From positions 1,280,001-1,344,000 of the forward strand of contig OY821641.1 in assembly GCA_963555995.3 (NCBI GenBank): DNA of 64,000 nucleotides. Direction: 5' to 3'. Source of the DNA: Vicinamibacteria bacterium (GTDB lineage: Bacteria > Acidobacteriota > Vicinamibacteria > Marinacidobacterales > Marinacidobacteraceae). The position numbers and the translations under genes were made by a program. The notes under the pieces were generated by a model, which was given only the letters and a program-made list of their open reading frames with translations, did no database searches and was not told the DNA's origin. Positions 53,296 through 58,024 of this stretch are shown one piece after another (positions within the stretch are counted from its first letter, which is position 1; every line of letters starts with the position of its first letter).

Positions 53296-53447
53296 GGGGA
53301 CGGGCCGGCGCCGGGTCCATGGTCACGAACCTTCATGCGATACTTGAAGCGCAATGTAGCAAATCCGGTTGATCGTTGCCATTCAAGGCCACGGCAGCCA
53401 TCGCCGGAGAGCCGGGCCGAGCGGAGCGTTCGGGTAGCATTTCCCTC

Positions 53448-54647
53448 ATGGAACCTGTTCCCCCGCTGTCGCGACGGCGGTTTCTCGGCGCCGTTCCCGT
53501 TGCCGCCGGCGCGAGCGCGCTGGCTCTCGAGCGCGCCGCCGGGCAGGGCGGGGGCGCCGTCTTCGGGAAGAGCGGCCTGCGGATCCTGAGCGAGCGGCCG
53601 GTGAACGCCGAGACCCTGGTCGCCGACCTCGATCCCCGCCACACGCCCAACGACAAGCACTTCGTTCGAAACAACGGCGGCGTGCCGGAGCGGGCGCTCT
53701 CCGGAAGCCTCGACGGCTGGTCCCTCCGCATCGACGGCGAGGTGGGCAATGTCCTGAATCTCTCGCTTGACGATCTCAAGTCGCGCTTCGAGAACGTGAG
53801 CCGGGCTCTCGTGCTCGAATGCGCGGGAAACGGCAGGGCGGCCTTCCAGCCGGGGGCGTCGGGCAACCAGTGGTGGCTCGGCGCGGTCGGCTGCGCGCGC
53901 TACACGGGCGTCCGCCTTGGCGACGTGCTGGATGCGGCCGGTGTGCTCGACACCGCCGTCTACGTCGCCTACTACGGCGAGGATCCCCACCTGAGCGGGA
54001 ATCCCGAAGAAGTCCCGATCTCCCGGGGCGTCCCGCTCTCCAAGGCCATGGACGAGTCCACCCTGCTCGCCTGGGAAATGAACGGCGAACCCCTGCCTCC
54101 GCACCACGGCTTCCCGCTCCGGGTGGTCGCCCCGGGCTTTCCCGCCTCGGCGAGCGGGAAGTGGCTGCGCCGCCTCTGGGTCCGGGACCGGGTCCACGAC
54201 GGCGCCAAGATGATGGGCTACTCCTACCGGGTGCCGCGGTACCCGGTCGCGCCCGGAACCGACGTGCCCGAGGAGGACATGGAGATCATCGGTCCCATGC
54301 CGGTGAAGTCCATCATCACCCGTCCCGAGACGGGCGTCCGCCACGCCGGCGGCGGGCCGCTCGCGATCCGGGGTTGGGCGTGGGCCGGTGACGGGCCGGT
54401 GAGCGCGGTGCACCTGAGCGCCGACTTCGGGACCACCTGGCTCCCGTGTCAGCTCGAGGAACCCGAGAACCCGTTCGCGTGGCAGCGGTTCGAGGGAACC
54501 ATCGCCTTCGACATTCCCGGCCACTACGAACTCTGGGCGCGCGCGACGGACCACCAGGGACGCCAGCAGCCCATGGTCGTGCCCGGCTGGAACCCGCGCG
54601 GCTACCTGAACAACGCGATGCACCGGATCGCGGTCACGGTGCTGTGA
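53448..54647 (+). CDS. Tat-exported sulfite oxidase-family molybdoenzyme (SorA/SorT-like)
   Basis: SRRRFL Tat motif; HFVRNN, LECAGNGR, MNGEPLP..HGFPLR, WNPRGYLNN. Confidence 0.93.
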   Translation: MEPVPPLSRRRFLGAVPVAAGASALALERAAGQGGGAVFGKSGLRILSERPVNAETLVADLDPRHTPNDKHFVRNNGGVPERALSGSLDGWSLRIDGEVGNVLNLSLDDLKSRFENVSRALVLECAGNGRAAFQPGASGNQWWLGAVGCARYTGVRLGDVLDAAGVLDTAVYVAYYGEDPHLSGNPEEVPISRGVPLSKAMDESTLLAWEMNGEPLPPHHGFPLRVVAPGFPASASGKWLRRLWVRDRVHDGAKMMGYSYRVPRYPVAPGTDVPEEDMEIIGPMPVKSIITRPETGVRHAGGGPLAIRGWAWAGDGPVSAVHLSADFGTTWLPCQLEEPENPFAWQRFEGTIAFDIPGHYELWARATDHQGRQQPMVVPGWNPRGYLNNAMHRIAVTVL

Positions 54648-54648
54648 G

Positions 54649-55053
54649 ATGAAACCTCTGCACCTCTTCCTTGTTGTCGCGCTGCTCCCGGCGGCCGCAT
54701 CCGCGGGCTCGGAGGAACGCCGCGTCCCGGCGCTTGCCTCCGGGCAGGAGAGCGACGGCCGGGCTCTCATTGACGAGAACTGCCTCTACTGCCACGACGA
54801 CAGCTACATCAGGGCGCTGAACCTCCCCCGTGAAGAGTGGGAAGGGGTGCTCGACATGATGATCGGGATGGGCATGCCGCCGCTCGATCCGGAAGTGCAG
54901 GAGCAGATCCTCGACTACCTCGAGGAAGAGCACGGCCCCCGGGAGAGCTCCCCGTCGCCCGGAGCCGGGGCGTCCGCGGACGCGGAGACGGAGGTCCTCC
55001 CCTGGGCGTTTCCACGCTACCGCCCCAACCCGCTCTACTGGCGGGAGCGTTAG
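54649..55053 (+). CDS. Monoheme cytochrome c (SorB-like partner)
   Basis: Signal peptide; CLYCH; W..VLDMM..MGM; starts 1 bp after the sorA-like gene. Confidence 0.85.
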   Translation: MKPLHLFLVVALLPAAASAGSEERRVPALASGQESDGRALIDENCLYCHDDSYIRALNLPREEWEGVLDMMIGMGMPPLDPEVQEQILDYLEEEHGPRESSPSPGAGASADAETEVLPWAFPRYRPNPLYWRER

Positions 55054-55054
55054 C

Positions 55055-55080
55055 GGAGCGCCGGCCTCCGGCCGGCATCG
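55055..55080 (+). repeat. REP-like palindrome variant
   Basis: GGAGCGCCGGCCTCCGGCCGGCATCG. Confidence 0.7.
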
Positions 55081-55150
55081 CCGACCGCAGGGAGGCGAAA
55101 CCGCAACCCTCGGGTGGGACCAGCGAGCCTTCGGGCTCCCCGCGGTCCCG

Positions 55151-55729
55151 CTACCTCAGCGGGATGTCCGTGAACTCGTGCTCGTAGATCGCCTCGCGGA
55201 TCTCTTCGGGACTCGCGCCGTCGTCGTGCATTTCCTTGGCCAGGAGGACCTCCTGGAGACAGGTGCTTCAAGTGGCGGCGTGGTTGTCCACGTAGCAGTC
55301 GAGCAGGCTCCCGTGATCTTCGGACGCGCCGTGACAGCCGCACAGACACGGCAACTGGACGAGCACCTCGGGGATTTCCTTGGCGATGGCGTAGGTCGTC
55401 TGCAGCGTCTCGTTCTCGTAGGTGTTCGGCGGAAGCGTCACCGGGAAGGGACGCGCCTCCTCCACCGAGTCGTAGTAGGGGAACGGCTTGGCCGCCTGGT
55501 TTCCCAGGTCGTACGCGGCGGCGGACAGGTCCGAAGCCGGCTGCAGGCCGCTCTCCACCGTCGAGTCCTCGAAGGCGGCGACGAAGAAGACGGCGGCGCC
55601 CGCCACCAACAGGCCGATCGCGAGGACCGGTGCGGCGCCCCACCCCTTCCGGGTGGCGGCGGGCTTGGCGGTGGTCGCTGGAGCCGCGGGTTTCCCGGCT
55701 CGGGAAGGTGGTGTTCGGCGCTTCTTCAT
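55151..55729 (-). CDS. PCYCGC/CYCXC-family putative selenoprotein (192 aa, in-frame UGA at 55268-55270)
   Basis: LPCLCGC...HGSLLDCY..NHAAT-UGA-STCLQEVLLAKEMHDDGASPEEIREAIYEHEFTDIPLR-TAG; the UGA sits at the first Cys of the family's HxxxCxxC motif. Confidence 0.85.
55240..55256 (-). other. Candidate bacterial SECIS hairpin
   Basis: CCAGGAG-GUC-CUCCUGG perfect 7-bp stem starting 11 nt after the UGA. Confidence 0.7.
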
Positions 55730-55939
55730 AACGAGGCCATATCTTAACGGCCGGTGGCAAAACCCACGCGGCGTTCGACGGGCGATGCATCCCGCCGGAA
55801 CCGCGCCTCTGCGAGGCGCTCATCGTTGCGTTTCGGTCGGAATACACTCGGTATTCCGCCCTCACGCGCCTTGTCAGCCGGGCGCCTCACCCGTCTCGGC
55901 GCTCACGTGGGTTTCACCACCGGCCGTTAACCCCTCCCC

Positions 55940-58024
55940 ATGCCCCGCCGACTCTGGCTCTCCGGCGCCGCGGTCTTCCTCGCGGCGATGCTCCTGTTCG
56001 TGGTGCAGCCGCTCGCCGCGCGCAGCCTGCTCCCTTGGTACGGCGGGGCTCCGATGGTGTGGGCGGTCGCGCTCTTCTTCTTCCAGGCGGTGCTGCTCGG
56101 GGGATACCTCTACGCGCACCTGCTGGTGACGCGTCTTGCCCCGCGGGTCCAGTTGGCGGTCCACGGCGCTCTCCTCGCCCTCGCCGCGCTGGCCAGCCTG
56201 CCGCCGCTCCCCGCCTCCGGCTGGGCGCCGCGGGGCGGGGAAGCGCCCGCCGGGTGGATCCTCCTCACGCTCCTGGTCACGCTGGGACCCGCCTTCTTCG
56301 CGCTGGCGGCCACCACGCCGTTGGTGTCGGCCTGGGTGGCCCGCGCGCGACCTTCGGCGGCCGGCGACCCGGGAGCGACCGGCGTCTATCGGCTCTATGC
56401 CCTCTCGAACGCCGGTTCGCTGATCGGCCTCGCGCTCTATCCGCTGCTGCTCGAGCCCCTCCTCGGGCTGGGCGGCCAGGGACGGCTATGGGCGGCCGGG
56501 TTCGTGGCGTTCGCCGTGCTCACTTTCCTGGCGGGCGCCCTTTCCGTGCGGGTCTCCGCCGGGGGTGCGGACCGCGCCGCGCCGCCCGTCCGCGCCGGAC
56601 TCGGTGACTTCCACGGTTCGGCGTTCCTGCTGGCCGCGGTCGGCTCGCTGGCGCTGGTGGCGGTCACGACCCATCTCACCCGCGACGTGGCGGCGGTTCC
56701 GTTCCTGTGGATCGCGCCCCTCGCCCTCTACCTGCTCACGTTCATCCTCGCGTTCCGGGGCGGCGATCCGTATCCGAGGCGGCTCCTCGCGCCGCTGCTG
56801 CTCGTTTCGGTGGCGGCGTGCTTCTACGTCTGGTTCCAGGACATCACCTACGGCCTCGACCGCGCCCTGCTCGCCCACGCGGTGGCCGCGCTCGGGTTCC
56901 TGTTCACCGGCTGCTGGGTGATCCATGGGGAGATCGCCCGGCGGAAGCCCGCCCCGTCCCGTCTCACCGGCTTCTACCTGTCCATGACGGCGGGAGGCGC
57001 GCTCGGGGGGCTCCTCGCGTCCATCGGCAGTCCGCTGCTCTTTCCGAACGTCTGGGAGTACCCGCTCGCGCTGGTGCTCGCCGTGATGGTCGCCTTTCGC
57101 GTCGCCACGCCGCCCCGGGACGCCTTCCGGTCGCTCGCCCGGAAGGCCGTCCCCGCGGCCACCCTCGGGGTCGCCATCGCCATCAGTGCGCTCGAACACC
57201 GGCGCCCGCTGATCGCGACCCGGAACTTCTTCGGCGTCGTGCGCGTCATGGAGGCCTACCCGGGCACCCCGGACTGGCGTCGCGACATGTGGCACGGCGG
57301 GATCGCGCATGGCTCGCAGTGGTTCGCTCCCGGACGCCGCCGCGAGCCCACCCTCTACTACTACGAGGGGACGGGCATCGAGGCGGTGCTGAACCGCCAC
57401 CCCAACCGGCGGCTGGTACGGCCCCTCCGGGTCGCCGTCGTCGGGCTCGGGACCGGGTCCATCGTCGTCCACGGGCGGCGGGGGGACCTGTTCCGGTTCT
57501 ACGAGCTCGACCCCCAGGTGGCGCAGGCGGCGCGCGACTACTTCACCTTCCTCGCCGACGCGCCGGCGGAGGTGGAGGTCGTGCTCGGTGACGGCCGGCT
57601 GAGCCTGCTCCGGGAGGAAAGCGCCGGGGAGGAGAGCTTCGACGTGATCGTGCTCGACGCCTTCGCCGGCGACGCGATCCCGGTCCACCTGCTCACCGCC
57701 GAGGCGTTCGATCTCTACCGGAAGCGGCTGGCCCCGGGCGGCACGATCGCGGTCCACATCTCGAATCGCCACGTGGACCTCGCCCCGGTGATCCGCGCCC
57801 AGGGCCTCCGCCTCGACCTGCTGTCGCTGCTCACGGTGAGCGATCCGGACCCCGACCGCTTCCACTACACGGCGACCTGGGTGGTGCTCAGCCTGAACAC
57901 CGACCTCATCACCGACCCGAGCCTGCTTGGGAGGGCGGAGCCGTGGACGGGAGAAGCCGCCGATCCCGGCGACCGGTTCCTGTGGACCGACGACCACTCC
58001 AACCTGCTGGACGTGCTGCGCTGA
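55940..58024 (+). CDS. Fused membrane domain / spermidine synthase-like methyltransferase
   Basis: LLFVVQP, YALSNAGS, GLGTG, YELDP, GDGR, VLDAF..DAIPVHLLT, WTDDHSNL. Confidence 0.9.
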   Translation: MPRRLWLSGAAVFLAAMLLFVVQPLAARSLLPWYGGAPMVWAVALFFFQAVLLGGYLYAHLLVTRLAPRVQLAVHGALLALAALASLPPLPASGWAPRGGEAPAGWILLTLLVTLGPAFFALAATTPLVSAWVARARPSAAGDPGATGVYRLYALSNAGSLIGLALYPLLLEPLLGLGGQGRLWAAGFVAFAVLTFLAGALSVRVSAGGADRAAPPVRAGLGDFHGSAFLLAAVGSLALVAVTTHLTRDVAAVPFLWIAPLALYLLTFILAFRGGDPYPRRLLAPLLLVSVAACFYVWFQDITYGLDRALLAHAVAALGFLFTGCWVIHGEIARRKPAPSRLTGFYLSMTAGGALGGLLASIGSPLLFPNVWEYPLALVLAVMVAFRVATPPRDAFRSLARKAVPAATLGVAIAISALEHRRPLIATRNFFGVVRVMEAYPGTPDWRRDMWHGGIAHGSQWFAPGRRREPTLYYYEGTGIEAVLNRHPNRRLVRPLRVAVVGLGTGSIVVHGRRGDLFRFYELDPQVAQAARDYFTFLADAPAEVEVVLGDGRLSLLREESAGEESFDVIVLDAFAGDAIPVHLLTAEAFDLYRKRLAPGGTIAVHISNRHVDLAPVIRAQGLRLDLLSLLTVSDPDPDRFHYTATWVVLSLNTDLITDPSLLGRAEPWTGEAADPGDRFLWTDDHSNLLDVLR

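Follow-up and report, generated by a model that had tools for sequence, protein, structure and literature searches.

An in-frame TGA in a CYCXC/PCYCGC-family gene of a Vicinamibacteria bacterium: a very likely selenoprotein and its possible role as an exported thiol/selenol reductant

The window analysed here is a 64,000-nucleotide stretch of contig OY821641.1 (assembly GCA_963555995.3, positions 1,280,001 to 1,344,000) from a Vicinamibacteria bacterium. On its minus strand lies a CYCXC/PCYCGC-family gene (55151..55729), whose frame runs from an ATG at 55729 to a TAG at 55151-55153 with a TGA at 55268-55270 as its sole internal stop. Standard gene calling ends here at 153 aa; the frame holds 192 codons if this TGA, codon 154, encodes selenocysteine (Sec154), in which case the peptide reads HAAT-U-STC and the inferred Sec is the first residue of U-S-T-C. 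The translation across the TGA is HAAT*STCLQEVLLAKEM...EEIREAI...PLR*. An earlier sequence-only reading had noticed that the frame runs on for 38 residues beyond the TGA to the TAG, and both re-translation and the coding score agree with this, the latter being 0.32 per codon in the 38 codons past the TGA and 0.17 in the 40 codons preceding it.

Two plus-strand genes converge on this frame: a sulfite-oxidase-family molybdoenzyme (53376..54647, start codon uncertain), which is SorA/SorT-like at scores below the cut-offs for those enzymes, and a small mono-haem c-type cytochrome (54649..55053) with a weak resemblance to SorB. On the other side, a fused MFS/spermidine-synthase-like protein (NF037959) is encoded divergently at 55940..58024 on the plus strand. 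Two repeats flank the gene. Firstly, a 48-nt repeat with 78 blastn hits in the genome lies between the convergent genes (55054-55101). Secondly, a MITE-like repeat of 189 nt (55744-55932), which has long terminal inverted repeats, ends 15 nt ahead of the ATG; 78 places in the genome match at least 150 nt of it, its DNA fold has a z-score of -6.6, and it is skipped in one relative's contig. A promoter and terminator scan of the gene region returned no promoter-like site and three terminator-like sites, all inside the gene, and the intergenic fold downstream of the gene is unremarkable (z -1.33). Contigs from RNA libraries of relatives cover the gene (four runs from two studies), a kind of record that cannot show transcription.

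The read-through protein passes both NCBIfam NF041379 (OS_HP4, 'CYCXC family (seleno)protein'; 100.2 bits against a cut-off of 90) and Pfam PF13798 (PCYCGC; 45.3 bits against 25), and it carries the CYCXC skeleton C-x-C-x-C, H, C, H, U/C-x-x-C. In the available parts of PMC9312934 and PMC13188914, OS_HP4 is listed with a UxxC motif, in the latter under PF13798. The statement in the sequence-only reading that Sec-containing members had already been annotated was right, given the NF041379 match and these partly available listings. The selenoprotein family is already catalogued, and what the gene offers is a valid correction of the annotation and no new family. As far as the accessible descriptions go, the window protein is like the rest of the family in its single Sec within UxxC, its Cys/His skeleton and its export, and unlike it in reading PCLCGC where the family has PCYCGC. 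The accessible part of PMC13068155 describes a Parageobacillus member as a lipoprotein without known function, with an Fe3+ binding protein next to it; the window protein differs from it in having a transmembrane anchor that looks uncleaved. None of the literature found places Sec forms in the Acidobacteriota lineage of the window. In the same literature, which was available in part and did not extend to subscription journals, no function or CcmH link is proposed for PCYCGC, CYCXC or PF13798. The portion of PMC12013277 that was available makes no mention of the CYCXC family, and the name OS_HP4 is absent from the available main text of PMC1976440, its apparent origin, whose supplements may hold it.

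The alternative to reading the TGA as Sec is a genuine stop codon or an error in the sequence, which would leave a product truncated at 153 residues. Comparison of homologues bears directly on this choice. The gene is present in 31 of 41 related genomes, namely in 24 of 25 of the window's own family (own genome included), in seven of eight genomes of the sister family f3 and in none of the eight of family f2. All 24 genes of the window's family have TGA at the column in question and all seven of f3 have TGC or TGT, so that the pairing of Cys with UGA sought by the sequence-only reading holds. In a sample of 401 genomes of the phylum, 92 had a match and TGA was found at 18 places in 15 genomes (a tally that includes the unpublished genome G064); the 17 places outside the window genome all fall at the identical column. 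A wide pattern scan of species genomes gave at least 119 stretches, of which 96 were in frame and 91 passed the family profile, spread over 14 named phyla. These Sec genes, at least 91 in number, belong mainly to Acidobacteriota (21), Nitrospirota (18), Binatota (9), Nitrospinota (8) and Methylomirabilota (8). One genome of the survey (G298; L054, L055) has four Sec-type copies, three of which are tandemly repeated together with a beta-propeller-like gene.

Among the 120 homologues listed out of 153, 74 are full length with CxxC, one differs at the second Cys, and 45 end exactly at the column, these last being known from protein entries and not from DNA. Close homologues carry names that point to Acidobacteriota. 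In one family member (P0185) the column holds Trp, possibly through a gene caller reading TGA as Trp. The 45 proteins that terminate at the TGA column can be taken in favour of a true stop, as can the unremarkable character of the hairpin by itself (see below). Against it stand the TGA at an identical Cys column in all 24 family genes, in 17 further Acidobacteriota genes and in 91 genes of the wide scan, the conservation of the 38 residues after the TGA together with their score on the family model, and the confinement of the hairpin to TGA genes. As for an error in the sequence, which the earlier reading had named as a way in which it could fail, no sign was found: the matched genes of the window's family all have TGA, and contigs of four runs from three studies (two of the runs possibly being the source itself) show no variant letter at 55268-55270. 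Altogether a true stop or sequencing error has a negligible probability and has already been largely refuted.

The genome also encodes the machinery by which the earlier reading proposed to judge its claim. It contains selA (490 bits), selB (297 bits) and a Cys-type selD fusion (247 bits), each above its cut-off, and a tRNA-Sec at 69.7 bits against a cut-off of 47. The SelD of this genome (G000 C1 2910735-2911673, L011) is of Cys type and, judged by eye, stands behind a long N-terminal flavin/NAD oxidoreductase-like domain. Fifteen other read-through candidates were picked by eye from 200. Five of them are similar, across the TGA, to families in which Sec forms are known, all below curated cut-offs when scanned as fragments, and the other ten are gene junctions or have no informative match. 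The five likely selenoproteins have their TGA in G000 C1 at 1619913 on the plus strand (AhpC/TSA-like, UxxC; L107), 1621024 on the plus strand (OsmC-like; L108), 1885614 on the minus strand (rhodanese; L110), 1026209 on the minus strand (MerB-like; L111) and 1183397 on the minus strand (peroxiredoxin; L117). The six candidate selenoprotein genes have no evident genome-wide SECIS sequence in common.

The hairpin claimed by the sequence-only reading is present on the minus strand at 55240..55256. It has a 7-bp stem, CCAGGAG/CUCCUGG, which begins 11 nt after the UGA (55256-55240), and its GUC loop lies 18 nt past the UGA. The bacterial SECIS consensus given in the available part of PMC13188914 (legend of Fig. 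2) has a loop of 3-9 nt with G first, a stem of 4-16 bp, a spacing of 16-37 nt and an energy below -7.5 kcal/mol. Measured against this partial source, the window's hairpin is alike in its 3-nt loop with G first, 7-bp stem and 18-nt spacing, and a 35-nt piece of the window folds at -10.4 to -11.1 kcal/mol; it is unlike the consensus in that at least two hairpin registers occur within the CYCXC family. Taken alone, the hairpin is not beyond chance and is weak evidence for Sec by itself. Its folding z-scores range from +0.38 to -1.07, a hairpin of at least 7 bp at such a spacing follows 4.6% of the 67,067 TGA triplets of this 70% GC genome, and an Rfam scan of 54900-56100 gave five matches, all far below gathering scores.

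The hairpin nevertheless rises above chance because the TGA column is conserved in 24 of 24 genes and the stem is found in TGA genes only. Across 62 fetched genes, from which the two registers were themselves derived, 31 of 32 TGA genes have 7/7 pairs in one of the two registers and one has six pairs, while 0 of 30 Cys genes have seven. Codons +4 to +9 are identical in 24/24 family genes save for one change at +8, in a comparison where a single genus supplies 15 of the 24 genes and certain individual codons elsewhere are equally fixed. Pairing is kept in 99.2% of cells of the window's register, where one pair shows a compensatory change from C-G to A-U, synonymous on the 3' side, in two sequences (4/500 shuffles); covariation is weaker for the second register, which belongs to other families of the class (44/500). 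The hairpin thus lies just 3' of the UGA and is conserved together with it. The other families of the class (L050-L061) use the second register, with a 5-nt loop and 21-nt spacing, at the same column, and their genes often precede a hybrid histidine kinase. A Cys-type gene of the sister family (L102, nt 6078, minus strand) keeps five of the seven hairpin pairs and the peptide CLKEVIL and is possibly a remnant of a lost SECIS.

With the machinery in the genome, the Cys/TGA pairing at the column and no sign of sequencing error, the hidden selenoprotein proposed by the earlier reading has held up well, and the gene very likely makes a 192-residue CYCXC-family selenoprotein. In this process SelB would almost certainly bind the hairpin, with Sec being inserted at codon 154.

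The history of the Sec codon was followed in trees of about 100 columns. The window's family (f1) and f3 group together with support of 100/98, and a quick tree, from which 16 long or near-identical rows were omitted and in which 22 of the other Sec genes were sampled, places both inside an Acidobacteriota clade whose other lineages have the same hairpin. From this nesting it follows that f3 probably reverted, that is, the sister family likely went back to Cys; it carries selA and selB in eight of eight genomes. The trees neither reject nor establish a single origin of all register-A Sec genes (AU p values of 0.054 and 0.074), and well-supported branches force at least four Sec/Cys switches.

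Regarding the protein itself, a single transmembrane anchor is predicted at residues 35-53 (55571..55627, minus strand; mean hydropathy 2.69). Nine K/R precede it, and residues 53-80 contain no K/R and five D/E. With basic residues before and acidic residues after the anchor, the C-terminal domain is therefore predicted to lie outside; the membrane anchor suggested by the earlier reading is in line with both hydropathy and charge, and the redox or metal-binding role that it proposed is putative. The NF041379 domain (residues 96-184; 55178..55444, minus strand) is predicted to be all-helical and holds C128, C130, C132, H139, C145, H150, U154 and C157. Variation at these eight positions (six Cys/Sec, two His) is rare, with the order C, C, C, H, C, H, C/U, C kept in 128 + 6 of 138 aligned members. 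An AlphaFold model of residues 78-192 (pLDDT 95.7, pTM 0.89) is likewise all-helical, and in it the Sec position immediately precedes the longest helix. Two profiles searched against the sequences of solved structures returned nothing usable (best E 4.9 and 0.9), and fold searches with the domain model gave no clear match.

The convergent sulfite oxidase and cytochrome c pair pointed out by the earlier reading is real and often syntenic across relatives. One explanation of the CYCXC protein would make it a dedicated partner of this adjacent SorAB-like sulfite dehydrogenase, maturing its cytochrome c subunit or exchanging electrons with it. Of the 29 relatives that have both genes, 20 have the SorA-like gene no more than 3.5 kb away, in Sec and Cys families alike, and a further five have it at a distance of 6-20 kb; also, CxxCH, Trp and Met line up between the SorB-like neighbours and the cytochrome that is fused to the CYCXC domain in four proteins described below (L080-L083). 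However, the CYCXC gene and the SorA/SorB-like genes are convergent and form no single operon, the two are unlinked in four of the 29 relatives, family f2 has a SorA-like gene in five of eight genomes and a CYCXC gene in none of the eight, and 0 of 40 loci outside the order have a SorA-family gene at a distance of up to about 4 kb. Linkage to the divergent MFS/spermidine-synthase gene is commoner (18 of 20 loci against 12 of 20), which points to simple ancestral synteny. In a complex prediction, a natural Cys-type homologue and its SorB-like neighbour (G036) scored 0.02 against a mark of 0.32, which speaks neither way. A dedicated SorAB partnership is given a poor chance, and we read the sulfite dehydrogenase pair near the gene as inherited gene order. 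A spermidine-synthase-like neighbour in Syntrophobacteria was considered as the counterpart of the window's protein and rejected, as the two share 26% identity over 154 residues only.

The reading that we place first, tentatively, is that of an exported, membrane-anchored, CcmH-like thiol/selenol reductant, which would keep metal- or haem-binding cysteines of exported proteins reduced. In this mechanism, the Cys/His-rich helical domain outside the membrane would act on such cysteines, with U154 at the start of the long helix as the reactive residue. It would attack a disulfide of the client, which could be the CxxCH of an apocytochrome or a site in a copper protein; the intermediate between U154 and the client would be resolved by a neighbouring Cys, and a TlpA/ResA-type thioredoxin would re-reduce the CYCXC protein. 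The same tentative standing covers attack, resolution and re-reduction jointly. Many lineages, the sister family among them, have Cys in place of Sec; Sec is therefore likely to adjust the activity rather than to be indispensable for it.

CcmH itself is, according to the available part of PMC3884852, a membrane-anchored non-thioredoxin three-helix thiol reductase. In profile comparison, the PCYCGC profile matched 27 stand-alone CcmH domains (27 of 28 rows, with L130 skipped and L150 and L154 not included) at 92% probability over 59 columns, end to end, and other alignments gave 91.6%. The controls reached at most 2.9% for 30 column shuffles, 9.7% for the reversed profile and at most 10% for 65 unrelated profiles. 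With cysteines masked the match dropped to 54% or 19%, and the four two-Cys canonical CcmH rows alone gave 57% in a different register. In the match, the PCLCGC motif (residues 127-132; 55334..55351, minus strand) is aligned with the Cys loop of CcmH. Among the phylum's stand-alone CcmH domains (L123 at G000 C1 349196-349573, and L126-L153), 22 of 27 are Cys-rich with at least four Cys, in contrast with the two-Cys textbook form.

Domain fusions and neighbouring genes are consistent with a CcmH-like role. Among 150 representatives of 1,015 clusters, a second CcmH-like domain was found in seven (four over the Pfam cut-off), a TlpA-type domain in two and a CxxCH motif in four, Pfam having been run on the 30 longer representatives and those in alignment A2. 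Fusions of 400-2000 residues were absent from 7,990 scored candidates, which is weak evidence. Four Acidobacteriota proteins (L080-L083) have the CYCXC domain fused to a mono-haem cytochrome c, followed by a degenerate second PCYCGC copy with only two to four Cys. TlpA is encoded near eight of 59 Sec-type loci from the wide pattern scan, with CcmH also near two of these eight, and at one locus (L156) the order CYCXC-CcmH-TlpA lies on one strand.

Structural comparison speaks less clearly for CcmH. Foldseek gave the domain a probability of 0.10 and an E of 6.2 against CcmH, and comparison with the CcmH fold (2hl7/2kw0) gave Z 3.4-3.5 and rmsd 3.6-3.7 with 66 residues aligned, scores that unrelated helical proteins equalled; the genome's own CcmH reached a fold-match probability of 1.00 and TM 0.66. 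The window domain has no Pfam CcmH (PF03918) match at E up to 1, and only three of 138 family members match that model, equal to the number of CcmH-like fusions in the alignment. Compared with CcmH/CycL (PF03918; PDB 2hl7, 2kw0), the CYCXC protein is alike in being a small, membrane-anchored, outward helical domain with a Cys loop past the first helix and a G-x-S-x-x-E-I-R tail, and in being found fused or adjacent to CcmH. It is unlike CcmH in the extra H...H-x-x-x-U-x-x-C insert, in carrying Sec in the second CxxC and not in that of the CcmH loop, in its N-terminal anchor, in the weak fold match, and in lying outside the genome's ccm locus: the genome's CcmH gene stands beside a CcmF-type gene about 985 kb away from the window gene, which thus has no place in a ccm operon.

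Copper binding is a close rival of the reductant reading. On this view the protein would be an extracytoplasmic binder of copper or another soft metal. Cu(I) would be coordinated by its six Cys/Sec and two His residues, Sec being among the ligands, and would either be buffered there or handed on to the machinery for export or metallation. Six Cys/Sec and two invariant His suit metal binding as well as a redox role, and the full skeleton is kept in the 128 + 6 of 138 members cited above; in addition, the available part of PMC9312934 lists Sec in metal-binding CxxC motifs for a ZntA-type ATPase. Neighbouring genes were tallied with our own crude gene calling at the 59 of 91 Sec loci with enough flank, where kin loci are not independent and the counts stand without a random-gene background. 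In this tally, ten loci have a copper-type neighbour, eight TlpA or CcmH, eight Fer4_5 and nine a CxxCH protein; at least one tallied type occurs at 28 of the 59 and none at 31. The ten copper-type loci unite P1B, CusA/B/C-like and YtkA genes: P1B ATPases lie near four (three tested, all above the Cu-type cut-off), CusA-family RND genes near three (two tested, both above cut-off), and YtkA adjoins four. The eight Fer4_5 loci, where the gene adjoins a Fer4_5 membrane protein, come in addition to these ten. At single loci, a CusA-type gene lies upstream in L048 and L084, a CopC gene at L070 and a Cu-ATPase within 4 kb at L067. On the other hand, the window has no copper gene within 6 kb, no copper gene was identified in the neighbour families that recur at the order's 20 loci (where genes found at one locus only were not annotated), and copper binding alone does not explain the CcmH-like, TlpA and cytochrome fusions. 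We regard it as quite possible, if somewhat less probable than the reductant. A reductant for metal-binding thiols would explain both the TlpA/CcmH and the copper neighbours and is therefore ranked first, narrowly.

The same residues would, in principle, fill two Cys3His sites, which would fit a structural or redox cofactor, i.e. two Zn sites or an Fe-S cluster, in an electron-transfer or sensing module without thiol exchange; Rieske, Fer4_5 and multi-haem proteins are indeed among the neighbours. Such a cofactor is improbable: the domain is predicted to lie outside, and no more than two to four Cys survive in the degenerate second copies of the cytochrome fusions, so that disulfide pairs fit better than a cluster.

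In conclusion, the finding corrects an annotation and adds a lineage to a known selenoprotein family. In the 45 of the 120 closest listed database entries that stop at the Sec column, the active-site motif and two helices are consequently missing. It also shows repeated switching between Sec and Cys in genomes that retain selA and selB. A broader and rather unlikely proposal is that CYCXC/PCYCGC could be an unrecognised Cys-rich paralogue of CcmH with Sec in its second CxxC, which would serve with TlpA as a widespread thiol-reduction module for the assembly of copper and haem-c proteins in at least 14 bacterial phyla. If either the CcmH-like or the copper reading is true, there would be a testable role for a family of at least 1,015 clusters at 50% identity that has had no assigned function, and a thiol-reduction fold other than thioredoxin would be seen to carry Sec.
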